Below are positions 11,086-29,468 of a stretch of 64,000 nt of DNA, one piece after another. Source of the DNA: Candidatus Omnitrophota bacterium (lineage in GTDB: Bacteria > Omnitrophota > Gorgyraeia > Zapsychrales > Fredricksoniimonadaceae); NCBI GenBank assembly GCA_015233675.1, contig JADFXH010000001.1, forward strand, positions 209,138 to 273,137, written 5' to 3'. Positions within the stretch are counted from its first letter, which is position 1. Each line of letters starts with the position of its first letter. The position numbers and the translations under genes were made by a program. The notes below the pieces were generated by a model that ran no database searches, had not been told where the DNA came from, and worked only from the letters and a program-made list of their open reading frames with translations.

Positions 11086-11129
11086 TGCCCTATGCTCAAT
11101 TCTAAAATGAATACCTAATTAAACGAATG

Positions 11130-13073
11130 TCACTTGCTAATACGAATTTTTTCTTCTCGTAATTGATCTAAAATCACAACAATATCACGCATCCGTTTTT
11201 GGATTTCCTTAAGACGCACGCCGTACTCTTTGATCATATTGGGATCACGGCCAAAGGCATCGCTTAAAAACCGGGACTTTACATAACTTTCTGTTTCTAA
11301 TTGCTTGCTTTCAGTTTCCAAAGCCCGGCTTTCTTTTTTAATTTGTTCCAAACGCTTAAGGGCTTCGTTATGACGCTCATGCGCCTGCCTTAACTGCTGA
11401 TTTTTAATGTCTTGCGAAGAAGAGGGTGCAAATTTTTTGTTGTCCGTAACACCTTTAGACCTGTCGGCTTTCTGGCCTGATTTTTGCATCTCAATGCCTG
11501 CTTTTTTCTCCAGGTAATAATCCAGATTCCCGTGATAATTTTTAATCTCACCGGGCATGACTTCCACAATATGATTAGCGATATTCTTGACGAAAAACAA
11601 GTCATGACTGATAAAACATAAAGTCCCCTCATATTTCTGAAAACAGCTGGTCAAAGCCTCTACCCCGTCGATGTCCAAATGGGTCGTGGGCTCATCCAGG
11701 CAGATGAAATTAGGAGGATTGATCAGAAGCTTGGCTAAAATCAAGCGGCTTTTCTCTCCACCAGACAAAACACGCACGGGTTTAAAAACATCATCACCTT
11801 TAAAATTAAATACGCCCAACAGCGTGCGCGCCTGGGCCTGCGGCACACTGCGCAGTGCCGCAGACATCAATTCTTCCAAAACAGTACGGGTCGGATTTAA
11901 GACATCGAGCCTGGTCTGGGAAAAATAACCCAGATTCACCTGATGCCCAAGCTTGCGTGCCCCCGAATCAGGAGATAAAACGCCCGCGATCATTTTTAAC
12001 AGGGTCGATTTTCCGGCACCATTGGGGCCGACTAAACACAACTTCTGCCCCTTGGTGATCTCAAAATCAAGGCCTTTATAAATCTGCTTATCACCGTAAG
12101 ATTTATCAATCCCGCTCATTGTTAATACAGTGTACCCGCTTTCTTGCGTCGAAGGGAACTCAAAATCACGAATAGAATGTTTTTCCTGCGGTATGCGGAT
12201 CTCTTCTAAGCGGTCGAGCATCTTGCGTTTATTGCGCACCGCAGAAGCGCGGTTTGGCTGGGCATGAAAACGTTCAGTAAAACGCTCTAACTGCTCGCGT
12301 TTCTGCTCAACGACCTTCTGCTGTTTCTCGAGCGTACGGTTGCGTATGGTCTTGGCTTCTTCATACGCTTCGTAATTACCCTTGACCTTGGTCATTTTAG
12401 CATCTTCCAGAATGATAGTGTAATTCGTCACATCATTAAGAAAAATTTTATCATGCGATATGATAATAAAAGTCCCGTCATAATTTGCCAGATAACCTTT
12501 AAGCCATATGGTCGCATCCAAATCCAGATAGTTGGTCGGCTCATCAAGCAGGATCAGATCATATTTGTAAGTCAAAAGTTTGGCCAATTGGGTGCGCATC
12601 TGCCATCCCCCGGAAAGATGGGCAATTGGCTTATGAAATTCTTGTTCTTTAAAGCCTAAGCCTGTAAGGATTTTTTCAGCCTTATGTTCCAGCTCATAAA
12701 TCCCCTTATGCTCCAATTGCTCCATAATATCCCCATAACGCGGGCTGTCTGCTTTATGCTCGTCTTCCAGATGGTGTTTTTCTTCTAGCAAACGGCGAAT
12801 CTCTTCATCTCCGCTTGTCATCTCTTCCATAACCGTGCGGTCAGAAGCATATTTAGCTTCCTGGGCCAGGTATCCGATATTAAGCCCCTTTTGGACCTGC
12901 ACACCACCCGACGATGGTTCCATCTGCCCTAAAATAATTTGAAACAGGGTAGATTTACCGGCGCCATTGGGGCCCGTCAAACCGATACGCTCATTGGGAA
13001 AAATACTTAAGGACACATTTTCCAAAAGCATACGTTCATCAAAATTCTTGGATAAATTGGTAATAGTGATCAT
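11130..13073 (-). CDS. ABC-F family ATPase (EttA/Uup/YheS-like translation factor)
   Basis: Two ABC cassettes (GPNGAGKST twice), an inter-domain linker, a C-terminal coiled coil, and no TM domain. Confidence 0.85.
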   Translation of the reverse strand: MITITNLSKNFDERMLLENVSLSIFPNERIGLTGPNGAGKSTLFQIILGQMEPSSGGVQVQKGLNIGYLAQEAKYASDRTVMEEMTSGDEEIRRLLEEKHHLEDEHKADSPRYGDIMEQLEHKGIYELEHKAEKILTGLGFKEQEFHKPIAHLSGGWQMRTQLAKLLTYKYDLILLDEPTNYLDLDATIWLKGYLANYDGTFIIISHDKIFLNDVTNYTIILEDAKMTKVKGNYEAYEEAKTIRNRTLEKQQKVVEQKREQLERFTERFHAQPNRASAVRNKRKMLDRLEEIRIPQEKHSIRDFEFPSTQESGYTVLTMSGIDKSYGDKQIYKGLDFEITKGQKLCLVGPNGAGKSTLLKMIAGVLSPDSGARKLGHQVNLGYFSQTRLDVLNPTRTVLEELMSAALRSVPQAQARTLLGVFNFKGDDVFKPVRVLSGGEKSRLILAKLLINPPNFICLDEPTTHLDIDGVEALTSCFQKYEGTLCFISHDLFFVKNIANHIVEVMPGEIKNYHGNLDYYLEKKAGIEMQKSGQKADRSKGVTDNKKFAPSSSQDIKNQQLRQAHERHNEALKRLEQIKKESRALETESKQLETESYVKSRFLSDAFGRDPNMIKEYGVRLKEIQKRMRDIVVILDQLREEKIRISK

Positions 13074-13765
13074 TTCAAAAGCCCTACTTCCTGTTTAGTT
13101 AAAATTTTCCACTGTCCTTTGGGCAAACTCCCAAGCTGCAGCTTACCTATCGACAAGCGGCATAAATACGTAACATAATGGCCGACGCTTTTGGCCATCA
13201 TGCGGATTTGACGTTTTCGACCTTCATTAAGTGTGATCTTAAATTCGGTATCCGTGCCATTATACTTAACTTCCATGATACGGCAAGGGGCAGTTTTCTT
13301 ACCTTCAACAATAACCCCTTCTTCTAGTTTGGATTGCTTAAGTTTAGTCAATTCCCCTTTGACCCGCACCAAATACGTTTTATCCGCATGAAATTTAGGA
13401 TGGGTCAAATGATACGCCAAGTCCCCGTCATTGGTCAAGAGTAAAAGCCCTTCGCTGTCGCGATCGAGCCTGCCCACCGGCGCTAAATGGCGCATGGTTG
13501 AAGGCAATAAATCCATCACTGTTTTGTCAGCGTGCAAATCATCCTTGGTAGTGGTAAAACCGGCCGGTTTATTAAGGCAGACATAGGTGTATTCCTTGGT
13601 GCCGATTTTTTGACCGTCAACCGTGATCTCTTCGCTGCCCTCCACCGGTGTGGAAGGCTCTTTGACAATAAGACCATTGACCATGACCCGCCCGGCTTGA
13701 ATAATACTCATCGCATCCCGACGGGAACAAACGCCGTTGTGTGATAAAAATACCTGTAAACGCAT
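13070..13765 (-). CDS. rRNA pseudouridine synthase, RsuA/RluB family
   Basis: S4 domain followed by the catalytic motif VGRLDRDSEGLLLLTNDG. Confidence 0.85.
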   Translation of the reverse strand: MRLQVFLSHNGVCSRRDAMSIIQAGRVMVNGLIVKEPSTPVEGSEEITVDGQKIGTKEYTYVCLNKPAGFTTTKDDLHADKTVMDLLPSTMRHLAPVGRLDRDSEGLLLLTNDGDLAYHLTHPKFHADKTYLVRVKGELTKLKQSKLEEGVIVEGKKTAPCRIMEVKYNGTDTEFKITLNEGRKRQIRMMAKSVGHYVTYLCRLSIGKLQLGSLPKGQWKILTKQEVGLLK

Positions 13766-13786
13766 AAATTTTTCTACTTTCCGTCT

Positions 13787-14569
13787 TTAATTCTGTCTTT
13801 GCCGGATGGCTTCGTAAAGGATGATTGCCGCAGAGATCGACACATTCAAAGAGTCTGCCAGACCTTTCATGGGAATTTTCACTGTCATGTCCGCGGCCAG
13901 AGGCCAAAAGTCAGATAACCCTTGATCCTCACTGCCAAAAACTAACGCCCAAGCGCCTTTAAAATCTGCCTGAGTATATAATTTTGAGGCTGCGGGACTG
14001 GCCGCGCAGATCTTGATTTTTCTTGACCTTAAAAATGAAAATATTTCCTCATTCTTTTCACATACAACTGGAATTCGGAAAATGACCCCCGTGCTTGAGC
14101 GAATGACGTTAGGATTATACACATCGGTTTTAGGGTCACAGACTAATACAGCCTCAACCCCCGACCCGTCACAGGTACGTAACACAGCTCCCAAATTGCC
14201 GGGTTTTTGGAGGGATTCTAGAACTACCACCAAAGGCTCTTTGGATAATTTTAGATCCTTTAAGGTCAAAACAGGCGTCTTGGCCAATGCAATAATACCC
14301 TCATGACGCTCACCGTAAGCTAATTTTTCTAAAATCCTGTCGCTCACTTCAATAATTTCAACCTTTTTGGCTGTCAATTGTTTAAGCAAATCGGACTGTT
14401 GGCCCTTAACGTAAAATACCTTATCCAAGACAACACCAGCTTCAAACGCCCTCTTGATCTCACGGACACCATCGATGATGGTCATCCCCCTCTCACGGCG
14501 CTCACGGGCTTCGCGCAAGCCTTGAGTATCTTTGATCATCCCATTTTGTAAGCTGGTAATTTTATCCAT
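13787..14569 (-). CDS. SpoU/TrmH-class rRNA 2-prime-O-methyltransferase (RlmB-like)
   Basis: SPOUT motifs GNLGAVLRTCDGSGV and FGSEDQGLS. Confidence 0.8.
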   Translation of the reverse strand: MDKITSLQNGMIKDTQGLREARERRERGMTIIDGVREIKRAFEAGVVLDKVFYVKGQQSDLLKQLTAKKVEIIEVSDRILEKLAYGERHEGIIALAKTPVLTLKDLKLSKEPLVVVLESLQKPGNLGAVLRTCDGSGVEAVLVCDPKTDVYNPNVIRSSTGVIFRIPVVCEKNEEIFSFLRSRKIKICAASPAASKLYTQADFKGAWALVFGSEDQGLSDFWPLAADMTVKIPMKGLADSLNVSISAAIILYEAIRQRQN

Positions 14570-14571
14570 AA

Positions 14572-15180
14572 TTAATATTTGACCGAACAGCCATAGGATT
14601 TGGTAATCGCCATACTAACGGGCTCGCCGTTCATGGCGGCATCTAGTGCTGCTTTAACATAATTTTTAGCTGTTTTTACATCTGCGATATCCGCACTAGG
14701 GACATCATCAATAGCGCCTTGATAGATCAATATCCCTTTAGGATCAACCACAAACATATGCGGAGTAGTTTGGGCATCATATAAATGTCCAACCTTACCG
14801 TCTGTATCTAACAAAATTGCTGTCGGAAAAGCTCCTTTATCTTTCACAAACTGATTAAAACCTTGCGGAGTATAACTTCCTTGCTTGCCTGGAGCTGAAG
14901 AATTAATCGATAACCATATAACCCCTTTTAAAGTGTACTCTTTTTGTAATTGGGGCATGTTGCCACTATTGTAGTGTTTTTTTACAAAGGGGCAATCAGG
15001 ATTAAACCATTCCAAGACCACAAATTTGCCCTTATAATCCGACAAAGAATGTTTTTGACCGTTGCTATCTGTTAATGTGAAATCAGGAGCAGCTTGACCG
15101 TTGACCACTTGAGCCCCTGCCGACCCGCAGATCAACAACACTGCAACAACACTTATCAATACCTGTTTGATTCTAAACAT
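14572..15180 (-). CDS. secreted thioredoxin-fold (redoxin-like) protein
   Basis: Signal peptide and a thioredoxin-like fold with WFNPDCPFV. Confidence 0.6.
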   Translation of the reverse strand: MFRIKQVLISVVAVLLICGSAGAQVVNGQAAPDFTLTDSNGQKHSLSDYKGKFVVLEWFNPDCPFVKKHYNSGNMPQLQKEYTLKGVIWLSINSSAPGKQGSYTPQGFNQFVKDKGAFPTAILLDTDGKVGHLYDAQTTPHMFVVDPKGILIYQGAIDDVPSADIADVKTAKNYVKAALDAAMNGEPVSMAITKSYGCSVKY

Positions 15181-15225
15181 AATCCCTCCCTGTGTTTAAT
15201 ATGGTTCTGTCAAAATTCTTGCAGG

Positions 15226-17121
15226 TTATGCATGATTATTTACCCTCTCCAAAATCATTCCAGGCGTTATAATTTGTGGCAAAATTATAGGGGCATCTGC
15301 ACCCGGCGGATAATAAATATATACAGGAATACTATCCCTGTCAAATGAAGCAAGAGCCTGAGTTATAGAAGGGTCATATTTAGTCCAGTCCGCTTTAAAT
15401 GCAATGATTCCTTTATCTTTAAAAGCACGAACAACATCGGAATTTTGTAAAACAAGCCGGTCATTAACTTGGCAGTTAATGCACCATCCTGCTGTAAAAT
15501 CTATAAACACGCCGTGACCGCTGTGACGAGCCTGATTTACCGCCGTCGAAGAAAACCTTTGCCAATGCAATTCATCAGAGGATTTATAAAATTTTGAAAA
15601 ATCCACCAAGCCGGTTTGTGTCCCAACCACTCCCAAAAACCAAATAACACATACTAATAAAACAAACCCCAAAGCCCTTTTTAGATAGATCATCCACGCT
15701 CCCGGCCTGGGGGCAAAGGACAAAAGAAAAGGAAAAGCGCTTAATAAAACAAAGGGTAACGCCAATCCCAATCCTAAAAATGTAAAAATACCGAATCCGA
15801 TGATATTCGGTTGACTTATAGCTACGGCCAGCGCCGTTCCCATAAAAGGCGCGGTGCAAGGGCTGGCGACGATCGTCGTTATCACCCCGCTTATAAAGCT
15901 GGCCTTATAACCCGCTTGTCGTGTCGGTAACCCGTTAATCGAAGGAGCAGAAAATTCGAAAACACCAAAAAGATTTAATGCTAAAAAAAATAAAATCAAA
16001 GCCACGATAACAACAAAGACCGATGATTGAAACTGGAATCCCCAACCGGCAAATTGGCCGGCAGATTTTAAAATAAAAAGCAGCAAAGCCAAGGCCCACA
16101 CTGAAGCCAGAACCCCCAACGCATAGACCAATGAATGACGAAATGCTATTTTGCTATCCGGATGACGGTCAATTAAATAAAGGACTTTGATCGATAATAC
16201 CGGCAGCACACAAGGCATTAAATTAAGGATCAAACCGCCGATCAAGGCAAACAAACATGCAATGAAAAAAGGGATCCTTACAGGCACCACCTTAAGGGGA
16301 GCTTGAATGACAATGGCTTTCGTCTTTCCTTTCCCATCCCAGCCCGAAGGATTAACTGCAATACCCTCAAGGGCCTTTAAATCCACGTGATATAGATGAG
16401 ATTTAGTCATGATCAGTTGATATCCGTAGGGGACGTTGCGCGTTTCTTGAGGCGCAGCATGCTCAACAACATCATCACGAAAAGGATAAAAAATAATATC
16501 CCCTTGCCTTTTTAGCGGAGTTTGAATGTCCAGGCGCCATTGATTGCCATCAAGAGCGGCATGACTGGTAATGCAAGGGATCAGTTGGGGCAAATCCTGA
16601 CGGGTTTGATCAAATAAAGTTTTAAAACTGTTAAACTTAATATCGGAAATACTCGTCACTATCGGCTGTAAAAAATTTAGTTCAGCCTTTCCAGGAACAC
16701 ACGTGTCTTGACAGGCTAACCATTTTACACTGGCGTAAATATTTACATCTTTGGATGGCTGAAAACTCTTGTCTAGGGTAATAGGAACTAATAATAAAAC
16801 CTCATGTTCATACCCGAAACTCGTTAAAGGCCCCACATTAAGACGTTGAGGATATGGCCAATGAATATCCCCCGCATTAATACCCGATGACAAATGCCAC
16901 TTTATTTTGGGAGATAGTCCTGAGTCTCCTGGATTTTGCCAATATACATGCCAGCCATCATCAAGGATCAAATCAAGCCCGACCCAAAATGTTCCCCCTC
17001 GTACAACCGAGTTTTGTTCGCTGACAAGCCGCACATGAGTATGCGCCTGATAGACCTCTTGGGCAACAGCCAAATTAATACTCCCAAGCAAAAAGACCAG
17101 TAACCAACAAACCCTTTTCAT
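15226..17121 (-). CDS. dsbD: thiol:disulfide interchange protein DsbD
   Basis: N-terminal periplasmic alpha domain, a central CcdA-like TM domain (LPVLSIK) and a C-terminal thioredoxin domain with WCINC. Confidence 0.85.
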   Translation of the reverse strand: MKRVCWLLVFLLGSINLAVAQEVYQAHTHVRLVSEQNSVVRGGTFWVGLDLILDDGWHVYWQNPGDSGLSPKIKWHLSSGINAGDIHWPYPQRLNVGPLTSFGYEHEVLLLVPITLDKSFQPSKDVNIYASVKWLACQDTCVPGKAELNFLQPIVTSISDIKFNSFKTLFDQTRQDLPQLIPCITSHAALDGNQWRLDIQTPLKRQGDIIFYPFRDDVVEHAAPQETRNVPYGYQLIMTKSHLYHVDLKALEGIAVNPSGWDGKGKTKAIVIQAPLKVVPVRIPFFIACLFALIGGLILNLMPCVLPVLSIKVLYLIDRHPDSKIAFRHSLVYALGVLASVWALALLLFILKSAGQFAGWGFQFQSSVFVVIVALILFFLALNLFGVFEFSAPSINGLPTRQAGYKASFISGVITTIVASPCTAPFMGTALAVAISQPNIIGFGIFTFLGLGLALPFVLLSAFPFLLSFAPRPGAWMIYLKRALGFVLLVCVIWFLGVVGTQTGLVDFSKFYKSSDELHWQRFSSTAVNQARHSGHGVFIDFTAGWCINCQVNDRLVLQNSDVVRAFKDKGIIAFKADWTKYDPSITQALASFDRDSIPVYIYYPPGADAPIILPQIITPGMILERVNNHA

Positions 17122-17135
17122 CTACGTTCTCTCCA

Positions 17136-17965
17136 AATAGTGTCAGTTCTCCCTAACTGTATATTTATTAAATATTTATGGATTAATTGCCTTCCTTGGA
17201 CGACCCAGCCTGCGTTTTTTTGGTAGAATTGCTTCACGCTGTTTGCGAAAACTCTCTGACATATACTCACCGTTTTTTTCAAGGGTTTTTCGCACGGATT
17301 TTAGATGATCTCCATCGAGACGGCGACTCATCATTCCCTGGTACGCCAAACACCTCGCTGGTTCATCTGATCCTAATAGCTGGAACGCCGGATTCTTATT
17401 GCGATCGATCAATCTTGAATTTGCAGGATGAGCATTCAACCTGTAGCTCGAAAAGAGATAATCCCCTATATTGTTAACCATCATCGCTCGAAGAGGGTTC
17501 TGCTCAATATATTGCATGGCTGTAAAAAGATATTCATCATCACTTACTAAGGAAGAACTAAATCTCCCTTGCCATACATGCCCACTGCTTTTATATTTAA
17601 AGTTATACCAGCGATTATACGCCACAGTCAAGCTCTGCATGATTTTGCTGACCGTCCCCCACTCGCTTACCCGCAATAGAAGATGGACATGGTTTGTCAT
17701 CAAACAAAACGCATATAATTGAAACTTATATTTTTTTTTATAATGATAAAGGCAACGAAGATAATGCCGCTGATCAGCTGACTCTAAAAATATTGCCTGT
17801 CGATTATTCCCCCGGTTGATGATGTGATAAATTGCCCCTGGATAATGCAACCTATGATCTCGTCCCATAAACGCTCCTGCATTTTGCTATTCGCAGGGGA
17901 CGAATATAGTGAATTTAACATTAACTTATTGTACTTCAATAGGTTGGGGAGAACTGACACCTATT
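17136..17965. mobile_element. small IS200/RAYT-like element: Y1 transposase gene bounded by ~20-bp inverted repeats
   Basis: Left IR aatagTGTCAGTTCTCCCtaac (17136-17157). The reverse complement of 17943-17965 is aatagGTGTCAGTTCTCCCcaac. The element sits 15 nt upstream of the dsbD start codon. Confidence 0.7.
17176..17868 (-). CDS. IS200/IS605-family Y1 (HUH) transposase, REP-associated tyrosine transposase-like
   Basis: Motif GAIYHIINRGNNRQAIF and HUH motif HVHLL, with a downstream Tyr region. Confidence 0.8.
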   Translation of the reverse strand: MGRDHRLHYPGAIYHIINRGNNRQAIFLESADQRHYLRCLYHYKKKYKFQLYAFCLMTNHVHLLLRVSEWGTVSKIMQSLTVAYNRWYNFKYKSSGHVWQGRFSSSLVSDDEYLFTAMQYIEQNPLRAMMVNNIGDYLFSSYRLNAHPANSRLIDRNKNPAFQLLGSDEPARCLAYQGMMSRRLDGDHLKSVRKTLEKNGEYMSESFRKQREAILPKKRRLGRPRKAINP

Positions 17966-17980
17966 AGACACCTATTAAAA

Positions 17981-19606
17981 TTATTTATCAAAAACAGTAA
18001 GGGTAAATTGCAGAGGAACGTAACCCATACTGCTTTGAGTTGATTGAGGCTGGCCGATGCTCAATCGTTGCGCGTCAAATCCATGATTAACCAAGAACTC
18101 ATGGACCAATCGAGCTCTGTCCTGGGCCAGAGCACTTAAGGCCTCTTGGTCCGGCGGAGCATTTTCAATTAATTGGCGCTTAATTTCCTCGTCGAATTTT
18201 GTGTCTTTATACCTGCCAACCCCTTGCTTATACTTCTTAGCCAAAGCCCATAAGCCGCGGATACCATAACGGCGTTGATACAACAATTGATAAACCTTGC
18301 TATCTGAACGTCTGGATTCTTTCCTTAATTTTTCATAATCCTTTGTAAATACATCTGCCTGTATCGCCTTCCAGTCCACCTGCGGGTCATAACTCCCGTT
18401 AATTTCAAGACGAAGCTTGGGATGTTCAGCAATGCCCTTAATCAATGTGACTAATTTTTGCTGCTGGTTGACAGTTATAACAGACTTGCCAGGGGCAAAA
18501 CGGACATACCCTAATTCATCAGTACTACTATCCGAACCACCTAAGGCGGAGGCTAGAAATGAAAACGGTTTAGTAACAAGATTAAGAAAGAAATTACGAA
18601 TAACCTGGAAAATTAAATGAGTATATTCAAATTTTGGATCACTCATATCACCGGATGCAGGCAATGCAATTTTGATCTTTCCCTGTGGATCTTCCAGAAG
18701 AGCAACAGCAAGGCCAAACGGCAAATGCAAAGCATCCTTGCTTTCTACGCTATTGCCAAATTCAAATCGCTGGATCAAAACCCTATGGCTGGCAACAAGC
18801 TTATTAGCTCCTATGCGATACTCCATTGTCAAATCTAACTTGCCGCTCCTTAATTCACGCCCCGTATACTTGCCAACATAAGGCGTCAGAATTCCTAATG
18901 CGTAACCATTGAGACTAAATGTTGTTTCCATTTCCAATGGGTGGGATAAGAGTTTAATAATCGTTTCCATCGTAATCTTTCCCTTATCATCTAAATTAGC
19001 CTGAAATTTGATCTTAGCCTGGTCCTCTGGATTTGTTGTAACATTAGTAACATGTAATTCCATGGCCCCCAATATCGTTGAAAAATCAGGTTTAATGGTT
19101 TTATCGGTAAAATGGACCTGCCCTTGGCGCAAAACAATACTATCAATGATAACCTCCGGCAACAAAACAGGTTTGTTGATGCCGGCTGTTGATTGTTTGG
19201 GGCCTTTTGCTGGTTGAGCAGCTGCCTGGGGAACAAGTTCTAAAAGATTGATCTTATTACCGGGCAGTAACTCAACGTTGACCCGAAGCCCATCCAGCTC
19301 AAAAGTTTCCACGTGATAAATTTTCTTAAACAAATCAACAGGGCTCATTTTCACAAATAATTTGTCAAAGCCGGCCATAACCTGATTTGTATTGTCCAAA
19401 ATTTCAAAATTATTAAGCGTCAGTTGCAGTAAAAAAGGGTTAAGGCCTACTGAATGTATATGGACAGGGTGCTTAAGAAGCTTTGTCCCCTGGTTTGAAA
19501 TTGCCCAGGTAAGGACAAGCGGGATTACAATAAAACCTGTAATGGTATAAAACAGGAATATCCCTAAAATTGTTTTTAAAAAAATCCGTAAAATTTTTTG
19601 TAACAT
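17981..19606 (-). CDS. hypothetical membrane-anchored protein (AsmA/DUF748-like?)
   Basis: N-terminal TM helix and a large periplasmic region. Family assignment is uncertain. Confidence 0.4.
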   Translation of the reverse strand: MLQKILRIFLKTILGIFLFYTITGFIVIPLVLTWAISNQGTKLLKHPVHIHSVGLNPFLLQLTLNNFEILDNTNQVMAGFDKLFVKMSPVDLFKKIYHVETFELDGLRVNVELLPGNKINLLELVPQAAAQPAKGPKQSTAGINKPVLLPEVIIDSIVLRQGQVHFTDKTIKPDFSTILGAMELHVTNVTTNPEDQAKIKFQANLDDKGKITMETIIKLLSHPLEMETTFSLNGYALGILTPYVGKYTGRELRSGKLDLTMEYRIGANKLVASHRVLIQRFEFGNSVESKDALHLPFGLAVALLEDPQGKIKIALPASGDMSDPKFEYTHLIFQVIRNFFLNLVTKPFSFLASALGGSDSSTDELGYVRFAPGKSVITVNQQQKLVTLIKGIAEHPKLRLEINGSYDPQVDWKAIQADVFTKDYEKLRKESRRSDSKVYQLLYQRRYGIRGLWALAKKYKQGVGRYKDTKFDEEIKRQLIENAPPDQEALSALAQDRARLVHEFLVNHGFDAQRLSIGQPQSTQSSMGYVPLQFTLTVFDK

Positions 19607-19682: not shown

Positions 19683-20252
19683 TTATTTATTATGCCCTAA
19701 AATCCATAAAGGTTTTAACAAAAACTGAATACTCACCCCTCCCCAGTACCGGGAATCCCAGCTGTTTTTCACAAAATCACTCAATAAGATATATTTTCCT
19801 TTATTTAATAGCCCTGCTTTCTGGTCATAAAAGAGCTTCAATGCCCTTCCGGATGAATCTTTGCCCATTATAGGGTATGAGTGCCCATTTATTTTTAAAG
19901 ACCCGTTTTCCACAATAAAGTGGTCGCCGGGTATTCCTTGGACCACTTTAAGGACCAACACTGTACCGGTCTCGCAACTACCCTGTGCCAAATAAGCCCG
20001 GTCGATGCCATACTGAGAGATTTCCCTGGTCAAACAAGTGGCTGCGTAATCTCCACGTTTAGGAGCTCCTTCGATTTTCATATAGATGCCGTATGGTAAA
20101 GAGTGAGTAAAGATATTAAAATAAAAAATATGAGTAAAATCTAAAATAATTAATGCGGATAAAATCAAAAGCAGCCATTGCATCGTTCTAGTCATAGCGG
20201 GAAAAATAATTAAAGAAGCCTGCACTGTAAATCCAAGCTTAGGTATTCGCAC
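19683..20252 (-). CDS. S26-family signal peptidase, TraF-like
   Basis: Box D LKVVQGIPGDHF (Lys general base), box E SDFVKNSWDSRYWG, and a candidate Ser nucleophile in HSLPYG. Only 189 aa. Confidence 0.7.
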   Translation of the reverse strand: MRIPKLGFTVQASLIIFPAMTRTMQWLLLILSALIILDFTHIFYFNIFTHSLPYGIYMKIEGAPKRGDYAATCLTREISQYGIDRAYLAQGSCETGTVLVLKVVQGIPGDHFIVENGSLKINGHSYPIMGKDSSGRALKLFYDQKAGLLNKGKYILLSDFVKNSWDSRYWGGVSIQFLLKPLWILGHNK

Positions 20253-20955
20253 AAATTCCGATATAATTTACTGAATTGGAAATATAGGCCCTTCGGCAGT
20301 CACCATGGGTATACGCGGACACCACCCGGTTAGTAATATGAGCCTCAATATACTGGTCATTTTCGCAACCGCCCTTGCCGGAACTGTCATAAGTTTCGGC
20401 TTGGGAAGAAGATATGAGCCACTGGCATTGAGCATCTGTGTATCCGGAGGGCAAAGGAATAGTCCCCCTGTCCTCTATGGTGCCGGTGACAACAAATACC
20501 GGCGGCGTTGTCGGCCCACCGGGAACGCTTATGGTACTCGTCACTGTAGTTCCAAAGACATTGGTTAAAGGCAATTTGGACACGACAATATTCTGGGCCC
20601 CGTCATTCACAGTCGTGGAAACTGTCAAGAAGGCCGATGTCGAGCTCATGGTGTAGTTGTGATTAAATGGATTTAAAGCATTCCAACTTGACGGGAGATA
20701 ACCTGATGATTCAAGGTCATTAGGCGGAGTATTTATTGAGCTTGGCCAGCCAGCTCCTTTTTGCAAATAATAACTGCGGGCCGCATCCTGAATGTTTTGA
20801 ATTTCCAGTGCTGTCTTTGTTCCTGCCTTTTCCAGGTAAGCACGGTACATCGAAGGAACGGCAAAAGTTAACAACACTGTCATAATAATTACAACTATGG
20901 TTAACTCCAATAAACTGAAGGCCTTTTTATTATTTATACAAATATAGAAGGTCAT
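20239..20955 (-). CDS. type IV pilin-like / pseudopilin (minor pilin candidate)
   Basis: Class III signal peptide KKA|FSLLELTIVVIIM with Glu at +5. 246 aa. Confidence 0.7.
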   Translation of the reverse strand: MTFYICINNKKAFSLLELTIVVIIMTVLLTFAVPSMYRAYLEKAGTKTALEIQNIQDAARSYYLQKGAGWPSSINTPPNDLESSGYLPSSWNALNPFNHNYTMSSTSAFLTVSTTVNDGAQNIVVSKLPLTNVFGTTVTSTISVPGGPTTPPVFVVTGTIEDRGTIPLPSGYTDAQCQWLISSSQAETYDSSGKGGCENDQYIEAHITNRVVSAYTHGDCRRAYISNSVNYIGICANT

Positions 20956-21352
20956 AAATAAGTCTTCCGGAAAATTCATTCGGCATGCTTCTTGTGATGC
21001 TGATCTGGTCCCCTGTTGCTCCGGGTGTAACTATTAAAAAGCTCCCCTCATTGGGGTCTATTAAAATCCCTTTGGGAATTGTCGTTGAGACAGTGAACAT
21101 ATTATTCTTAAACGCAAGCTGATAGCTATATCCAAACGGATTGCTTTTATCCGCCTGTGTCATATACGTATCCCCTAATGATGAATTATAGTAATCCATC
21201 GCCGCTTCTGCGATTGAGCCCATTTCCCTGACTGTTGCCTGAAACCTGGCACGATCAATGAATTTTGCGCCATTACTGATAATCGTAGTTAATAAAACTC
21301 CGATGATAACCATGACAAGCGTCAACTCCAGCAACGTAAAGGCATTTTTCAT
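20930..21352 (-). CDS. type IV pilin-like / pseudopilin
   Basis: Prepilin N-terminus MKNA|FTLLELTLVMVIIGVL. Confidence 0.75.
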   Translation of the reverse strand: MKNAFTLLELTLVMVIIGVLLTTIISNGAKFIDRARFQATVREMGSIAEAAMDYYNSSLGDTYMTQADKSNPFGYSYQLAFKNNMFTVSTTIPKGILIDPNEGSFLIVTPGATGDQISITRSMPNEFSGRLIYDLLYLYK

Positions 21353-21807
21353 TGCAAGGTTGTTGTCCATGTCTGGCTTGATGCCGTATAACTTGGCGGA
21401 AGTGCCGATATTTTAGTTAATGCTGTTGTTAATTTTGCAGCGGGTATAGCCGGCACTGCCGTTAACCCGATATCAAGCATTTGTGAATTGTTGGCATCAA
21501 CGTTAACGGTATAATCCCCGTTCCATGGGTTGGTTGTTATCGCAGTAAATTGCGCGGGCAAATACCCGGCGGCCAACTTGGCAAAAGTTATACCCGTATA
21601 AACACCCCCGTTATCGCTGGCCCACTCAACACTTGCAGTCTGGATGGCCTTGATACTAGCAATAGCATTTGCGATACGGCTGCTATCGGTTGCGGTTTGC
21701 CCTAACGGTACGACAGCCAGTAAAATAACACTGATGATCACCAGCACGACCACCATTTCGATAACAGTAAAACCTTTCCTGATTTTTAATTTTCTAATCA
21801 TGTCCAT
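21349..21807 (-). CDS. type IV pilin-like / pseudopilin (GspG/PilA-like)
   Basis: Prepilin N-terminus MIRKLKIRKG|FTVIEMVVVLVII. Confidence 0.8.
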   Translation of the reverse strand: MDMIRKLKIRKGFTVIEMVVVLVIISVILLAVVPLGQTATDSSRIANAIASIKAIQTASVEWASDNGGVYTGITFAKLAAGYLPAQFTAITTNPWNGDYTVNVDANNSQMLDIGLTAVPAIPAAKLTTALTKISALPPSYTASSQTWTTTLQ

Positions 21808-21833: not shown

Positions 21834-23033
21834 TTATTTGAATACCCCTTCACCCATCCGGTTTATATTTGTATAGATCGGCAAAATAAAAGAACACAGG
21901 ATCGTAAGCAAAAATAACGCAGCCACAACTAGCAATGAAGGCTCGATGATCGCGATAAGCGCCGCAATTGATTCCTTGCTCTTAATATCGTAATACTTAT
22001 AAATACGTTCCAGATATTGCGGTAAAAAACCACTTACCTGGCCTTTACTCAAATTCTGGCAAACAAACGGCGGGAAGAATGGATCTTGTTTAAAGGCATC
22101 ACCTAAAGAGATCCCTTTAAATATCCTCTCCCGGATTAAAATCAGTCTTCCTGTAATGCAGGTATTGCTGGCTTGATGGATATTAGTGATTGTTTGAACA
22201 ATGTTCACGCCGCTTTTTTGATACACATATAAATTCAAGAACACATGGGACAACTCGATATTTTTAATCAGGTCTCCCACCAACGGTATACTCAATATAA
22301 CTTCCATCAACCTTTCACTATAATTATGCCAAAGGTGTTTTATCAGGAAGACTGCCGTCACTAAACATGAAATAACCACCCACCAGTATTCTTTTATAAA
22401 ACCGGCGTATCCGACCAGAATCATAGCGGATAAACTGTTTCCGGAACCCGACGGCAAAAAAGCTTTCAGCAAGGGGACCAGTTTGATGGAGATAAATATC
22501 GATAATCCTGTCAATAAACAAAAAATCACTCCCGGATAGATCAACGCCCTGGTAATTTTCTTTTGATTTTCATCCTTGAAATTATAATATTGAGCTAAAA
22601 GGTCTGATAATTCCGGGATGTTACCGGTCTTCTCTGCCGCGCTTAGCGATACACAGACAATCTTGGAAAAAATCTTTGTATTTTCAAATGACTCTTCCAG
22701 AGACCGCCCGTCATTAATAAAATTACATATTTTTTTAAGGGCTTCTTTTAAAACAGGATTTGAGCTTGTTTCATTTAATGTGTTAATGGCTTCATTGACT
22801 GATAAACCGCATTTTTGCATATCGGCGAAATCCTTGAAAAATACGGACAGCACCGATGATGATAATCTGCGGTTTTGAAATATACTCTTTATAAACGCCG
22901 GATAATCAGGAGTAATATTCAGAATTTCAAGGCCGTAAACCAAGGCCTGATTCTTAGCATCTTCCAGACTCCCGTCGAAGGTTTGAGTAATTTCAGATCT
23001 CTTGGCCGTCAAAGCTTCAATTTTCCAATACAT
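21834..23033 (-). CDS. type II secretion / type IV pilus platform protein (GspF/PilC family)
   Basis: Two T2SS-F repeats, three TM segments and ~400-aa length. Confidence 0.85.
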   Translation of the reverse strand: MYWKIEALTAKRSEITQTFDGSLEDAKNQALVYGLEILNITPDYPAFIKSIFQNRRLSSSVLSVFFKDFADMQKCGLSVNEAINTLNETSSNPVLKEALKKICNFINDGRSLEESFENTKIFSKIVCVSLSAAEKTGNIPELSDLLAQYYNFKDENQKKITRALIYPGVIFCLLTGLSIFISIKLVPLLKAFLPSGSGNSLSAMILVGYAGFIKEYWWVVISCLVTAVFLIKHLWHNYSERLMEVILSIPLVGDLIKNIELSHVFLNLYVYQKSGVNIVQTITNIHQASNTCITGRLILIRERIFKGISLGDAFKQDPFFPPFVCQNLSKGQVSGFLPQYLERIYKYYDIKSKESIAALIAIIEPSLLVVAALFLLTILCSFILPIYTNINRMGEGVFK

Positions 23034-23037: not shown

Positions 23038-24669
23038 TCATCCTAAAACCCTGACGGCCTCTTCAATTGAGGTATCGCCCCTTAATATAAGCGACTTCAT
23101 GTCATCCATCATCGTTTTATACGTCCCTCGTCTTCGTAACAGGGAATAGATTTCCCCTAAAGCATTTTTAGCAATAAGTTCTTTAATTTCAGGATCAATA
23201 AACAATACTTCAGCTACTACTGTTCTTCCCAAATAACCATTTCGGCATCGTTCGCAGCCATTGGCCCGATATAGCATTTGAATTCCTTGGCTTAAATACT
23301 TTGCTTTATAGGGCTCAAAGGTGTCTTGCGCCCCTGCAAACGAACTCTTGCAAAAGTGACAAAGTTTTCTAACCAGCCTTTGAGAAACTACGGCCACCAA
23401 ACAACTGGAGATGTTTACTGCATCCACGCCCAAATCTTTTAACCTTAAAATTGCTGAAATCGGGTCGTTGGTATGTAAGGTTGAGAAAATTTGAAGCCCG
23501 GTATTGGCTGCGCGTAAAGATTCATCCGCTGTCTCTTTGTCCCGGATCTCTCCGATCAAAATCACGTCAGGGTCTTGCCGCAGGAATGCTCGGATAGCCA
23601 TGCCGAATGTCAGATTTTGTGACTGATCAACCTGAACTTGAGACATTAACGAATGGGTGATCTCAACGGGATCCTCAATGGTAAGAATTTTCTTAGAAAT
23701 TGATTTAATCTGGTTTAATACCGCTGACAGGGTCGTTGATTTTCCGCTGCCGGTGGGGCCGGTGACTAAAATCAAACCGTGAGGGACAATGATGGCCTGA
23801 TTGATTAATTTATGGTTATGCCCTGAATAACCCAGACTTTCCAAGGGGATGGATGCGCGGGCCTTGTCCAGAAGACGTAAAACAATGCCCGGTCCATGAA
23901 TAGTCGGGATTTGTGAAAACCTGACATCAACCGTCCTTGCCATTTCTTTAAATTCATGATCAAATCTACCATCCTGAATAGTGTAATCACAGGGATTGCC
24001 CTTACATTTAGTCAAAATTATATTAGCCAGCTTAGAGATATATTCCGGCTTAAGACAGTTGATAGGGGTTAATAATCCATCAATTCTAAACCGGATGTCA
24101 GTGGTATTACCGGTAGGCTCTATATGAATATCCGTGCTGCGCGTGATAATCGCCAGATTGATAATGGCATTAAACCACAAAGCTAATGAATCAATTCCTT
24201 TTAATTTTAATATCTCAATTTCAGAAAGTAATTTTTGCCTATCCTTCTCCAAAATTATCAAATCCAAAGCATTCCTGATATCATTCTCTGTGCCTATGTA
24301 AAAATTCACTCCCTTATTACCAAAATTATTCTTAAGAAAGTCTGTAACTTCAACGTTATCTATAAACGAAACAACAAATGACGGGATAGGCCCGTTTTTT
24401 AACGGAAAAATCTGGTGCTCACAGAAATAACCCAACCCCACCCGTTCAATTGCCTCATAGTCAGGCATATAATCATTTTTAAAAAACTTCCAGCCGATCT
24501 GTTTTGAAAGACACACCGCTAATTCTTCATCATTGATAAATCCATGATGCTTTAAAATAGACCCTAAGCGATTTTTAGGATTTGTTCTCTTATACTCAAG
24601 GCAGTGGTCAAGCTCTTCTTGAGTTAAAAGTTTACCTTCAATTAATAATTCACCGATCTTTGCTAACAT
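23038..24669 (-). CDS. type II/IV secretion ATPase (GspE/PilB family)
   Basis: N-terminal GSPII_E_N-like domain, Walker A GPTGSGKST, and a C-terminal CxxC...CxxC zinc motif. Confidence 0.9.
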   Translation of the reverse strand: MLAKIGELLIEGKLLTQEELDHCLEYKRTNPKNRLGSILKHHGFINDEELAVCLSKQIGWKFFKNDYMPDYEAIERVGLGYFCEHQIFPLKNGPIPSFVVSFIDNVEVTDFLKNNFGNKGVNFYIGTENDIRNALDLIILEKDRQKLLSEIEILKLKGIDSLALWFNAIINLAIITRSTDIHIEPTGNTTDIRFRIDGLLTPINCLKPEYISKLANIILTKCKGNPCDYTIQDGRFDHEFKEMARTVDVRFSQIPTIHGPGIVLRLLDKARASIPLESLGYSGHNHKLINQAIIVPHGLILVTGPTGSGKSTTLSAVLNQIKSISKKILTIEDPVEITHSLMSQVQVDQSQNLTFGMAIRAFLRQDPDVILIGEIRDKETADESLRAANTGLQIFSTLHTNDPISAILRLKDLGVDAVNISSCLVAVVSQRLVRKLCHFCKSSFAGAQDTFEPYKAKYLSQGIQMLYRANGCERCRNGYLGRTVVAEVLFIDPEIKELIAKNALGEIYSLLRRRGTYKTMMDDMKSLILRGDTSIEEAVRVLG

Positions 24670-24672: not shown

Positions 24673-25323
24673 TTATTCCGGTTTATAGTCGATGGTCTTA
24701 GTCAATTCCTGCGGTGCGCTAAAATGCAGGGTCACACCGGTGTCGGAAATAGACAAAACTTGAATGCTATCAGTTGGACTGGATTTCTCTTTGACCTGAA
24801 AACTAACGCCTGCGATGGAGAGGATCGCCTCTTTCTTGACATTATCCCCTCCAATATACTCTACTTTAATTTCAGGCATATTTTTTTGGCCATCGACGGA
24901 TGGATCTTTAAAGTTTCCCCTATTCTCACTTTTTAATTTATTGATCTGGGCAAGAGCTTTTTCCTGTTCAAGCTCTAGATTGGTTTGTTCAAGTTTATTC
25001 TTTAAATATTTCGTCTGTTTTTGCTCTTGGCGATCACGATCAAGCTGTTGTTGGATCGCGGCATCATCTTCTTTGGGAGTGCCTGACTCAACTCCTCCTT
25101 TAAGCCCTGTTTCTGCGCTTGGATTTACAGCAACAGGCCTTGCTGAAATAACTTTCATTGACTCCATTTCAGATGCGGCCCCAAGACTTTCCGGTGCCGG
25201 TAAATTTGTCCTCGGGCTGAGTCTCCAAAGGGTCACAATAATTGCAAAAATGCCAAACAAAAAAGGCACTAATACTTTCTTTGAAAATAACTTTTTAAAG
25301 TCCATAGATTTCCCCTTTAACAA
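24673..25323 (-). CDS. hypothetical bitopic protein, PilP/GspC-like candidate
   Basis: N-terminal TM, a coiled coil and a C-terminal beta-rich domain. Assigned only from its position inside the pilus operon. Confidence 0.4.
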   Translation of the reverse strand: MLKGKSMDFKKLFSKKVLVPFLFGIFAIIVTLWRLSPRTNLPAPESLGAASEMESMKVISARPVAVNPSAETGLKGGVESGTPKEDDAAIQQQLDRDRQEQKQTKYLKNKLEQTNLELEQEKALAQINKLKSENRGNFKDPSVDGQKNMPEIKVEYIGGDNVKKEAILSIAGVSFQVKEKSSPTDSIQVLSISDTGVTLHFSAPQELTKTIDYKPE

Positions 25324-25789
25324 TTAAATTATTTTTATCTTTGCTTATTTCTGAGACCATAAAATCAGTGTTCTTCTCTAATAAATGAATATCGTCTAAC
25401 ACGGCCCCCATATCCGTCTCTTTTGAAAACTTATCTACCACGATCTTAATTTTTAATCCCCTGACTCCCTCATACTCCGTATCCACATAATGATCTGAAA
25501 TGTCATCCGCATCCTTAAACCCCTCTAACTGGACATTCATGTCGGTCCCGCTGCAGCTTTCAAGCATCCTGATCTGGCTCATGACCAAACCATATTCAAT
25601 CGACAGAAGCACAGGCCCGCGTTTAACTAAAGATTCCCGATCATTGATTTTTTGTTTCATATCCAGATTGTTTGCCTGCATCTGTACGGCTTCATATCTC
25701 AGTTTATCTACCCGTGCTTTAGCAGACATCCCAAAATTAATCAAAACCATCGATGCAATGAATGAAGTAAAAATGATGGTTTTATTCAT
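25295..25789 (-). CDS. PilO-like pilus assembly protein
   Basis: N-terminal TM, a coiled coil and a periplasmic domain, positioned between pilM/N and the ATPase. Confidence 0.5.
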   Translation of the reverse strand: MNKTIIFTSFIASMVLINFGMSAKARVDKLRYEAVQMQANNLDMKQKINDRESLVKRGPVLLSIEYGLVMSQIRMLESCSGTDMNVQLEGFKDADDISDHYVDTEYEGVRGLKIKIVVDKFSKETDMGAVLDDIHLLEKNTDFMVSEISKDKNNLIVKGEIYGL

Positions 25790-26987: not shown

Positions 26988-28835
26988 TTAAATATTCCTG
27001 ATGACGCTTTTAGGAGTAATAATGATGACCAATTCTGTCTTTTTGCTTGATTTAACTTTATACTCAAAGGCATTTCCTAAAAATGGTATTTTATCCAGGT
27101 AAGGAATCCCTTCGGTTGAATTATTCCTGATGGAGCTTATAAGTCCTCCCAAGATCAAGGTTTTTTCGGGCTCGACTCCAACATTCGTCGTAATGCTTTT
27201 CGTTGACACCTGCGGCTCCTGGATGGTCAACCCGTTACCCACCGCTACATTAGTCATAGAATCAAGGGTGTTTAGCGCCGCAGAAATATTCAACACGGTT
27301 TTATTTTCTTCGATCTTTGCTTCCAATCTCATTGTTAAACCATCCGACACTTGAGATGTCGTAACATTGGATTGCGTAATGTTATTCCCTATCGTCTGAC
27401 CTGTCCCGGAAATATAAGGGACACTGGTCACCTCCTGTATAACGCATGGGAACATGTTAGATACCGTAATCGATGGCCTGCTGACGACATTTACATCCCC
27501 CATTGAATCAAGCGCTTTAAGAACCATTGACACCCCGCCGTTGGTCGCCCCACTGGCAGAATCCGGACCGGCGGCTGATAAAGTCAGTAATTGTCCGCTT
27601 AAGAATCCGGCCGAAGAAAAGTTTGTTGCCGCCGTGATATTGTTGAGACCCTTGAGGCTTTTGGCTATGGTATTCCAATCAATTCCTGTTTCGTGGTTCC
27701 TTGATAAGGTCACTTCTATGATCTGGATCTCGAAGCTTTGCTGTCTGCCTAAATTCTCATTAATGGTTGAGACCAACTCCCCTACCTTATCCAGGACCGC
27801 GGGCTTATCAGTCACAACGATTGAGCCGCTGACCTTATTAAGAGAATAGCTGCCGGTATTGGGCGTTATTATTGATTTAACGTTGTTTTCTAAATCAGCC
27901 CATAAGGAAAGTTTGGGCGAGGTATTTTCGTAATAGATCTTTGTCCCTACCTTAATATCCTGGTTTTGCTGGTTATTTGTTGAAATGCTATTGTTATTAT
28001 TACTATCCACGAAGGATGCATTGGAGGTCTCATCAGTAAATGATTGGTCCACCGCCGGCATGTTTATATTAAAAATCCTGGTTTCTGTTTCTGTAATGAT
28101 TAAATCCTCCCGGGAGACTTTAAATCCATATCCAAACTTATATAAAAGACTTTTTAATGCCCTCCACACCTCAATATTTTCAAGGTTGATGGATGTTTTT
28201 TGAGAATCAATGTCCGGGGTTGTGATAATGTTGTATCGCGTAACCTGAGAAATTGTTGAAAGGTAAATTTTAAGCGGCAGGTCATTGCCTTTGAGGGTAA
28301 TCTTAAGGTTTAACTCCGGCGGCAAATCCGGGGACGATTTTCTACTAACCTGATCCTCCACATTTATTGCTTTCATTAACGCTGGTTTTGCTGTTTGTCT
28401 TATTGCCCCTTTCTTTTCAATGACGCTTTCGGACAGAATATCCATTTTGGCGGCTATTGTTTTATCTTCATTTTTGTCATCAGAAGCCGCTATCCTGTGT
28501 ATAATAAATTTGGTATAAAAATCATCATTAGCTACAAATCGCAGCACGTAACTTTCTCCGGAAATACCAGTTACTGTCATTTCAGCGGCTTCTAAATCCG
28601 TAGGCATTAATTCCAGCATATTCGGTTTATTGTTATTTCTTTGGACAACATAGGTGTCTGCTCCGAAACCTCTGATAACACCATTTATGGACTCGGGGAA
28701 AATGACGGTTGTGACATGATCTTTTTTAACATGCACGTATATTTCTTTACCGTCGTATACAAAATCTTTAATTTCGGCGCGCGCGATTGGTAAAATGCTT
28801 GAGCAAAAAATAATGCTTAATAATAGCTTTTTCAT
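26988..28835 (-). CDS. secretin (PilQ/GspD family)
   Basis: Signal peptide and the conserved C-terminal secretin domain GIPYLDKIPFLGNAF...TELVIIITPKSV. Confidence 0.88.
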   Translation of the reverse strand: MKKLLLSIIFCSSILPIARAEIKDFVYDGKEIYVHVKKDHVTTVIFPESINGVIRGFGADTYVVQRNNNKPNMLELMPTDLEAAEMTVTGISGESYVLRFVANDDFYTKFIIHRIAASDDKNEDKTIAAKMDILSESVIEKKGAIRQTAKPALMKAINVEDQVSRKSSPDLPPELNLKITLKGNDLPLKIYLSTISQVTRYNIITTPDIDSQKTSINLENIEVWRALKSLLYKFGYGFKVSREDLIITETETRIFNINMPAVDQSFTDETSNASFVDSNNNNSISTNNQQNQDIKVGTKIYYENTSPKLSLWADLENNVKSIITPNTGSYSLNKVSGSIVVTDKPAVLDKVGELVSTINENLGRQQSFEIQIIEVTLSRNHETGIDWNTIAKSLKGLNNITAATNFSSAGFLSGQLLTLSAAGPDSASGATNGGVSMVLKALDSMGDVNVVSRPSITVSNMFPCVIQEVTSVPYISGTGQTIGNNITQSNVTTSQVSDGLTMRLEAKIEENKTVLNISAALNTLDSMTNVAVGNGLTIQEPQVSTKSITTNVGVEPEKTLILGGLISSIRNNSTEGIPYLDKIPFLGNAFEYKVKSSKKTELVIIITPKSVIRNI

Positions 28836-29097: not shown

Positions 29098-29141
29098 ATG
29101 GATGAAACTAAAATCCGGAAGGGTTTTTGACAAATCGACAA

Positions 29142-29468
29142 ATGAATATAAAATTACGGAAAGCTCGCCAACATAACAATGGCTTCACGCTTTTAGAAAT
29201 TATCGTCGTTTTGATCATTATTGGCATATTAGTCGCCATTGCCGTGCCTAATATCTATGGCTGGATTGACCGTTCGGCCGCATCAGAGGGAAACTCTTCT
29301 TTGAGGCTCCTTTCTGATCAGATGGATGCATGCATGCTTACAACAAAGACTGTTGATCAATGCGCACAAAATCTTACTGCGGGAGGGACTGGTTTAGGGC
29401 CAAATGTTACTGTAGAAACTCAAGTTAGAGGAGGGAACTATACTATAGCCCAGTATGGGGGGCACTGA
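29142..29468 (+). CDS. type IV major pilin, N-terminal two-thirds (frame 1)
   Basis: Leader MNIKLRKARQHNNG|FTLLEIIVVLIIIGILVAIAVP. Terminates at TGA 29466 immediately after a G6 tract. Confidence 0.8.
   Translation: MNIKLRKARQHNNGFTLLEIIVVLIIIGILVAIAVPNIYGWIDRSAASEGNSSLRLLSDQMDACMLTTKTVDQCAQNLTAGGTGLGPNVTVETQVRGGNYTIAQYGGH

Follow-up and report, generated by a model that had tools for sequence, protein, structure and literature searches.

A TraF-lineage S26 peptidase gene beside a type IVb-like pilus operon in an Omnitrophota chromosome

TraF peptidases and the type IVb pili of conjugative elements are both well known. In the IncP and Ti systems, TraF trims and cyclises the TrbC pilin, and S26-fold proteins are also encoded beside the structural genes of other surface filaments, as are SipA/LepA in Streptococcus pyogenes and SipW in Bacillus. 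Here, we analyse 64 kb (hereafter the window) of the genome of a Candidatus Omnitrophota bacterium (assembly GCA_015233675.1, contig JADFXH010000001.1, positions 209,138 to 273,137), in which a gene encoding a TraF-like S26 peptidase follows the last pilin gene of a type IVb-like pilus operon. In the literature that we searched, no type IV pilus operon is reported to contain an S26/TraF peptidase; what is new relative to that literature is a TraF-lineage S26 fixed beside a chromosomal type IV pilus operon devoid of a type IV secretion system (T4SS), together with intermediates that explain this arrangement. We estimate at about 60% the probability that this conjugation-derived peptidase came together with the pilus operon and is still active, cleaving an exported, pilus-related protein. 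The Omnitrophota are uncultivated bacteria, most of them ultra-small and thought to be host-dependent (PMC10066038), and type IVb-like pili have otherwise been described almost only in Proteobacteria (PMC6668835).

Family and catalytic site of the peptidase

The list of open reading frames (ORFs) of the window contains a 189-amino-acid (aa) ORF with a GTG start at 19683..20252 on the minus strand, and NCBI holds an identical protein, annotated 'S26 family signal peptidase', that starts at the same GTG 20252. The strings LKVVQGIPGDHF and SDFVKNSWDSRYWG, which an earlier model-made reading of this DNA (the original prediction) had quoted as boxes D and E, are both exactly present in this ORF, and the Pfam threshold of the family is passed (Peptidase_S26, PF10502, gathering cut-off of 22.9 bits, E-value of 5.5e-12). 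The predicted family, motifs and ORF were thus borne out, but not the length: most of the roughly 120 close homologues (58-77% identical) have 166-171 aa, with an N-terminus lying a few residues before the membrane helix, which leads us to prefer ATG 20195 (MTRTMQWLLL...) as the likely start of a 170-aa protein. From this ATG, a gap of 43 nt separates the S26 gene from the stop codon of the last pilin gene (20239-20241). The 14-nt overlap on which translational coupling of the two genes had been proposed is arithmetically correct but results from taking the first in-frame GTG as the start; the proposal is contradicted by the homologue lengths and by four related loci in which other genes lie between pilin and S26.

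The best NCBIfam model for the protein is TraF_Ti (TIGR02771, 76.5 bits, under the equivalog cut-off of 100.25); two other TraF models are likewise under their cut-offs (PRK13884, 59.5 bits for 156; PRK13838, 48.6 bits for 186). The LepB model sigpep_I_bact (TIGR02227) scores below the TraF models and below its own cut-off (34.9 bits for 47), and the signal peptidase I model PRK10861 gives 15.9 bits for a cut-off of 277. When 1.84 billion cluster representatives were searched exhaustively with HMMER, 1,537 S26 relatives were recovered. The nearest of them outside the family are located in conjugative modules, after a gene for a type IV coupling protein (T4CP) where one is present, as traF follows traG in RP4 and Ti, the contexts being TraD-relaxase-T4CP-S26 for P0124 (47% identical to the S26 of the window), T4CP-S26-NikA for P0125 (44%), S26-NikA for P0123 (49%) and, in a complete Omnitrophota chromosome, TrbI-VirB11-relaxase-T4CP-S26-NikA for L020 (39%). 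The two nearest sisters (P0121 and P0132) are located on contigs of less than 1 kb, with a NikA-like start readable downstream. The closest plasmid matches annotated as TraF are about 33% identical and are located after traG; the sequence used for the TraF comparison was a TraF from an Eikenella plasmid, annotated by the Prokaryotic Genome Annotation Pipeline (PGAP). In a neighbour-joining tree, the chromosomal S26 clade is monophyletic (88/100), with the S26 of L096, a mobile locus described below, as its sister (73/100); the S26-NikA and T4CP-S26-NikA types branch next. The S26 of the window thus nests among those of T4CP-S26-NikA modules and, judged by its sequence, belongs to the conjugative TraF lineage and not to LepB, in agreement with the original prediction.

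The protein resembles TraF of RP4 and Ti in its size (~170-180 aa), its single N-terminal membrane helix, its Ser/Lys dyad and its box E. It differs from TraF, besides the unmet equivalog cut-off, in being fixed in a chromosomal, vertically inherited locus beside type IV pilins: the 64-kb window contains no T4SS, T4CP, relaxase or integrase gene, and the other chromosomal-type loci also lie outside transfer regions. In an alignment of 19 orthologues (numbering of the 170-aa form), S32 (in HSLPxGxY), K83 (in VLK-x3-G-x-PG), G87, P89, G90, the cysteines C54 and C74 and, in box E, N144/S145/W146/D147/R149/Y150/W151/G152 are invariant in 19/19 sequences, whilst D91, which completes PGD, and S148 are at least 90% conserved. 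The Ser and Lys columns are also conserved in the conjugative relatives. Box E aligns to S279/D281/R283 of LepB, and the K-x3-G-x-PGD spacing is that of LepB K146-RAVGLPGD; boxes B and D of LepB were matched by motif spacing only, as MAFFT misplaced both owing to the large LepB insertion.

The AlphaFold model of the protein, obtained with the 19-orthologue alignment, consists of a helix at the N-terminus (residues 2-20) and a beta-rich domain with the fold of signal peptidase I (SPase I), with a predicted local distance difference test score (pLDDT) of 84.6. In a Foldseek search of the PDB with this model, ranks 1-26 are all occupied by the S26 signal peptidase I family (LepB, SpsB, SipA, E. 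faecalis EF3073 and B. anthracis SPase I; E-values of at least 2e-3, probability 1.0). In the topology suggested by the model, the N-terminal helix would anchor the protein in the membrane and the catalytic domain would be periplasmic. Compared with E. coli LepB, the protein has the same fold and catalytic motifs, but it is about half the size, lacks the large beta-insertion and has the lineage and distribution of a conjugative rather than a housekeeping peptidase. Pairwise nonsynonymous divergence (dN) of the S26 genes is 0.16-0.41 with saturated synonymous divergence (dS), dN/dS is 0.08-0.25 where computable, and the S26 proteins of the most divergent loci are 58-72% identical, about as conserved as the assembly ATPase encoded upstream and more than the platform protein. 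The low dN/dS and the level of conservation close to that of the ATPase indicate that the gene is under purifying selection and is no decaying pseudogene. Its product is apparently an active Ser/Lys endopeptidase.

The pilus operon and its mobile relatives

The nine genes of the operon lie upstream of the S26 gene on the same strand, in the order given below, followed by the S26 gene itself and by two features of its surroundings (the arrow marks the leader or signal peptide cleavage site).

26988..28835, minus strand: secretin with an ordinary Sec signal peptide (..PIARA↓EIKD); PF00263, 103.7 bits; Secretin_N_2, 28.2 bits
25786..26973, minus strand: 395-aa GspL/PilM-PilN-like assembly protein, by fold match only
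25295..25789, minus strand: 164-aa bitopic accessory protein, no Pfam or NCBIfam family match, position conserved
24673..25323, minus strand: 216-aa bitopic accessory protein, no family match (Pfam), position conserved in all related operons
23038..24669, minus strand: assembly ATPase of the GspE/PilB family; PF00437, 338.6 bits; NF053729, 41 bits (cut-off 38)
21834..23033, minus strand: inner-membrane platform protein of the GspF/PilC family; PF00482, 136 bits
21349..21807, minus strand: prepilin 1, 152 aa, probable type IVb major pilin; N_methyl, 26.7 bits; leader ...KIRKG↓FTVIE
20930..21370, minus strand: prepilin 2, 146 aa, minor pilin; TIGR02532, 21.8 bits (cut-off 16.3); leader ...MKNA↓FTLLE
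20239..20979, minus strand: prepilin 3, 246 aa, large minor pilin whose C-terminal domain varies; N_methyl (PF07963), 21.9 bits; leader ...NNKKA↓FSLLE
19683..20195, minus strand: predicted S26 Ser/Lys peptidase of the TraF lineage, 170 aa from ATG 20195; PF10502, 46.4 bits; TIGR02771, 76.5 bits
17176..19606, minus strand: window-specific insertion between the S26 and DsbD genes, outside of the system; DUF748/AsmA-like gene and IS200/Y1 transposase gene
29127..29468, plus strand: orphan prepilin, 113 aa, uncertain member of the system; N_methyl, 33.6 bits; leader ...HNNG↓FTLLE

The core set of a type IV filament (secretin, PilB/GspE ATPase, PilC/GspF platform and prepilins with class III leaders) is complete in this operon, which we call type IVb-like from its sequence, with several curated cut-offs unmet. 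The best NCBIfam models for the secretin, the only product of the operon with an ordinary Sec signal peptide, are MshL (175 bits, cut-off 250.2) and type IVB PilN (TIGR02520, 142.2 bits, cut-off 287.65), both under cut-off. Prepilin 1 of the window has 15.5 bits with Bundlin (cut-off 22.3); its orthologues in L001 and L003 pass PilS (33.2 and 38.6 bits, cut-off 22) and Bundlin (31.6 and 23.7 bits). For the 395-aa protein, searches of Pfam, NCBIfam and PDB profiles gave no match. In its structural model (pLDDT of 86), an actin-like domain on the cytoplasmic side is joined by a membrane helix to a small periplasmic domain; GspL/EpsL and PilM head the PDB matches (E-value of ~1e-8), and PilO2Bp is not among the fold matches listed. 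The N-terminus of the ATPase passes the model of the MshE-type c-di-GMP-binding motif (NF053729), which suggests that pilus assembly may be under c-di-GMP control.

In the orthologues of prepilin 3, a conserved pilin N-domain is combined with at least four unrelated types of C-terminal domain across genomes, and the protein is probably a tip adhesin, as far as domain composition tells. One type combines a phage tail Collar domain, which scores 75 bits in L001, with a Gp10_C-like domain. The variable third-pilin genes are located at 9057-9998 in L001, 724-1623 in L010, 8538-9308 in L013 and 7867-8916 in L101. This apparent swapping of modular adhesin domains recalls the variation of PilV in R64. 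In TP114 and R64, the variable minor pilin PilV is the mating adhesin (PMC9045228).

The overall composition of the operon resembles that of the thin-pilus operons of R64 (pilI-V), TP114 and PAPI-1 (pilL2-M2): genes for a secretin, a bitopic protein with a predicted actin-like fold, small accessory proteins, the ATPase, the platform protein and a large variable minor pilin lie together with that for a putative major pilin of PilS/Bundlin type. As in PAPI-1, no prepilin peptidase gene is present in the operon (PMC3984277). It differs from the thin-pilus operons in several respects: neither the 395-aa protein nor the major pilin retrieved a useful pilO or pilS match from plasmids, the secretin is not a lipoprotein, there is neither a PilT-like transglycosylase nor a shufflon, the host belongs to Omnitrophota and not to Proteobacteria, and the operon has an attached S26 gene, a feature not reported for any of the thin-pilus operons in the literature searched.

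The operon is followed by the S26 gene, on the same strand, in every chromosomal-type locus that was recovered through S26 and for which upstream sequence is available (L001-L006, L010, L012-L019). In L095, found via the 395-aa protein (40% identity), the N-terminus of S26 begins 42 nt after the last pilin gene, at the contig end. A DsbD gene is present further downstream in most chromosomal-type loci, the S26-DsbD junction being occupied by toxin-antitoxin pairs, by HlyIII or by nothing, with DsbD following directly. No second genomic context was found for this S26 clade among 185,579 species genomes. Two loci retain only parts of the arrangement. In L026 (8779-10803), the pilus operon is gone and the last 39 codons of S26 remain, between an IS110-family transposase gene and the conserved HlyIII gene; a separate cluster resembling a type II secretion system, with apparent frameshifts, is located 4 kb downstream. 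In L099 (15094-18934), the machinery genes are kept and the pilin and S26 genes are gone, replaced by genes for an MscS-like channel and, on the opposite strand, two PilT-like ATPases. L001 and L003 come from JGI peat and wetland data sets. Several loci of the family are titled 'Planctomycetales' in their records and are probably mislabelled bins. In the L016 locus (8891-18882), whose record is titled Acidimicrobiaceae, Omnitrophota-like sequence of low G+C content gives way abruptly to ORFs of very high G+C content at a point barely within the 3' end of S26; this assembly is probably chimeric.

Also recovered were relatives of the operon that lie among, or adjoin, T4SS, T4CP or integrase genes, as do the thin-pilus operons. 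L091, L090 and the P0378 contig were reached through distant homologues of the 395-aa protein. In L091, genes for VirB8-VirB9-VirB10-VirB11 are followed by the same nine-gene operon and, directly after the last pilin gene, by a T4CP gene; the arrangement on the P0378 contig is similar. A metagenome scan with the T4CP of L091 found nothing. A metagenome scan with a tight alignment retrieved L096, in which an integrase gene, a helix-turn-helix gene and the same nine-gene operon precede the genes for a T4CP (PF02534, 318 bits), an S26 peptidase and a MazE/PIN toxin-antitoxin pair. The L096 peptidase is 49% identical to that of the window, with intact catalytic motifs; the two cysteines that are invariant elsewhere have been replaced in it (C54 by F, C74 by S). 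In this mobile-element-like contig (L096 17026-19837), the T4CP has 748 aa, and the 7.4 kb upstream contain no VirB genes. Next to its integrase gene, L096 also has a gene for a 1459-aa protein that carries a Peptidase_S74 (endosialidase-chaperone) domain.

In a neighbour-joining tree of the concatenated ATPase and platform proteins, with the root on L090, both L091 and L096 branch at the base of the chromosomal clade, and L101 and L099 are nested inside it; the absence of S26 from these two loci is thus best explained by secondary losses. The operon tree and the S26 tree agree on the position of L096 with respect to the chromosomal clade. Considering this congruence and the intermediate arrangement of L096, the simplest history starts from a conjugative or integrative element with the organisation [pilus operon]-[T4CP]-[TraF], its pilus operon being a thin-pilus module like those of R64 or PAPI-1. 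This element would have been fixed in the chromosome, the loss of the T4CP gene would have placed the peptidase gene directly behind the last pilin gene, and the arrangement would since have been inherited vertically in one Omnitrophota clade. We infer that the event proceeded in the direction from element to chromosome. The suggestion in the original prediction that the locus is a hybrid of conjugative and type IV filaments therefore makes sense in evolutionary terms, the operon occurring in conjugative or integrative elements (L091, L096).

Present-day role of the peptidase

If the peptidase still serves the pilus with which it would have arrived, it would cleave a periplasm-exposed segment of an exported, pilus-connected protein, as TraF trims the TrbC pilin. 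Our best guess for the substrate is a pilin or adhesin domain, or the secretin; the link between S26 and the pilus is one that we infer from their shared history. A TrbC-like C-terminal propeptide or extension on the pilins was considered and rejected, the C-termini of the major pilins being flush and conserved. We regard as doubtful, though worth stating, the more specific proposal that the TraF-derived enzyme, once the conjugation genes had gone, became dedicated to maturing the type IVb pilus, for example by trimming or releasing the adhesin pilin or another exported component, along with its bolder version in which elements of the L096 type transfer DNA with the pilus machine and the T4CP.

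Several observations weigh against the reading that we prefer. No substrate was identified; the major pilins have no C-terminal extension and no TrbC/VirB2-like gene was noticed in the operon, the small ORFs of the window not having been screened against PF04956. The S26 gene is separated from the last pilin gene by toxin-antitoxin pairs in L013 and L016 and by an antisense gene for a CheY-like receiver in L010 and L012. With these four loci, and with the downstream DsbD block being equally syntenic, the adjacency of S26 alone could reflect inheritance and not function. L101, nested in the clade, has an apparently intact operon with a PAS-GGDEF-EAL gene in place of S26, indicating that the pilus has no strict need for S26 in cis, and L091, L090 and the P0378 contig carry the operon with no S26 nearby. 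With regard to the history, both the S26 and the operon trees were built by neighbour-joining only, the monophyly of the chromosomal clade in the operon tree went from 184/200 to 101/200 when the new loci were added, support for the basal positions is moderate, and the chromosomal loci have no T4CP remnant between last pilin and S26 that could still prove a deletion. Finally, only one in five structural models of S26 was confident.

The main rival explanation, to which we give clearly less credit, takes up some of these points and considers S26 to be a functionally independent relic of the mobile element, whose position beside the pilin genes is only historical; it could be an auxiliary signal or processing peptidase that acts on other exported proteins, or it could process VirB2/TrbC-type pilins encoded by conjugative elements located elsewhere in the genome. 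Its strongest arguments are L101 and the insertions at the pilin-S26 junction, to which can be added the sister and outgroup operons (L091, L090) with no S26 nearby, the equally conserved position of DsbD and the presence of TraF-containing conjugative modules in Omnitrophota chromosomes (L020). Against such independence, the position of S26 has been kept across lineages with saturated synonymous sites although both flanking junctions accept insertions, S26 was lost together with the operon in L026 and with the pilin genes in L099, and this S26 clade has no second context in the species genomes searched. We also considered a non-catalytic assembly factor, a chaperone of pilus subunits like SipA/LepA of the sortase pili of Streptococcus pyogenes. 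SipA-type factors set a precedent for S26 homologues in pilus loci, with the S26-fold gene adjoining the filament genes, and SipA structures (4n31, 4k8w) are among the fold matches of the window protein, with TM-scores of ~0.45. SipA and SipW, however, belong to sortase pili or TasA fibres of Gram-positive bacteria, and SipA-type factors have lost their catalytic residues, whereas Ser and Lys are invariant and the S-x-D-S-R of box E is kept in both the clade and its conjugative relatives, which makes such a role improbable.

The original prediction had correctly pointed out that the locus has no A24 prepilin peptidase, and had taken this to indicate non-canonical processing of the filament. 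Indeed, a motif pattern search detected no A24 peptidase motif or gene in the window or in ~358 kb of related Omnitrophota loci, which represent a small part of each genome, and S26 is located roughly in the slot held by pilU in R64 (PMC3984277). All four prepilins of the window nevertheless have canonical A24-type class III leaders, (G/A)↓F(T/S)xxE, with G or A at -1, F at +1 and E at +5. A24 peptidases cleave prepilin leaders at the cytoplasmic face of the membrane, whereas the active site of S26 peptidases, as in the topology modelled here, is on the wrong, periplasmic side, and type IVa pili need an A24 peptidase. Such pili are common in Omnitrophota (PMC10066038). The use of an A24 peptidase in trans also has precedents: the R64-type operons of PAPI-1 and Burkholderia lack pilU and use PilD (PMC3984277), and loci for mannose-sensitive haemagglutinin (MSH) pili lack a peptidase gene of their own (PMC6668835). 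In addition, the mobile and outgroup versions of the operon include some devoid of both A24 and S26. From the leaders, the side of catalysis and these precedents, we conclude that S26 is not a substitute for the prepilin peptidase; its replacing the A24 enzyme by a non-canonical route is very improbable, and the leaders would be cut by an A24 peptidase encoded elsewhere in the genome. Even less credible is that S26 could be the housekeeping signal peptidase I of the organism. A phmmer search detected no canonical LepB in the window or in the ~358 kb of related loci, which cover too little of each genome to be informative, and this notion is at odds with the score of 34.9 bits under the LepB cut-off of 47 and under the TraF scores, with the nesting of S26 inside conjugative TraF sequences, with the restriction of the clade to about a dozen of the 185,579 species genomes and with the deletion or absence of S26 in L026, L099 and L101.

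If the preferred reading is true, an Omnitrophota clade domesticated a conjugative thin-pilus module, keeping its pilin protease and discarding the rest of the transfer machinery. This would be a dated, traceable case of type IV filament loci gaining parts of a type IV secretion system, and would extend type IVb-like pili to another phylum; if S26 were moreover a maturation protease, this filament would be the first of type IV whose biogenesis requires an S26 enzyme besides the A24 peptidase. The finding draws attention to a conserved and apparently active protease, which would be more interesting if a pilus substrate exists. Should S26 be an unrelated hitch-hiker, the finding would shrink to a corrected annotation, that of a TraF-like protein of 170 aa uncoupled from the pilin gene.

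Other features of the window

The original prediction regarded S26 as the terminal gene of the operon. This can be retained as a functional judgement only, since the next genes (DUF748, IS200-type transposase and DsbD) are on the same strand; a promoter and terminator scan found no terminator-like site 3' of S26, with counts not above the shuffled expectation. The first two of these genes form an insertion present only in the window genome, at a place where the relatives have toxin-antitoxin pairs, HlyIII or nothing. They encode a 541-aa DUF748/AsmA-like protein with an OmpA-like C-terminus (17981-19606, minus strand; PF05359, 396 bits) and a 230-aa IS200/Y1-type transposase (17176-17868, minus strand; PF01797, 68 bits). 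The gene for the orphan prepilin, in divergent orientation, lies a short distance upstream of that for the secretin.

The remainder of the window is ordinary chromosome, with genes for PrsA, GlmU-like, IspE-like, HisG and DsbD proteins, a cluster for efflux systems of the resistance-nodulation-division and major facilitator superfamilies (RND/MFS), and others. A 270-aa membrane protein encoded at 47628-48440 has a weak match to the exosortase EpsH (26.3 bits, cut-off 25.7). The CheY-like genes that precede S26 in L010 (1623-2090) and L012 (9449-9950), the two closest relatives of the window, encode proteins of ~125-147 aa and are 75% identical to each other at the nucleotide level; receiver-domain genes also flank the operons of integrative and conjugative element type in L091 and on the P0378 contig.

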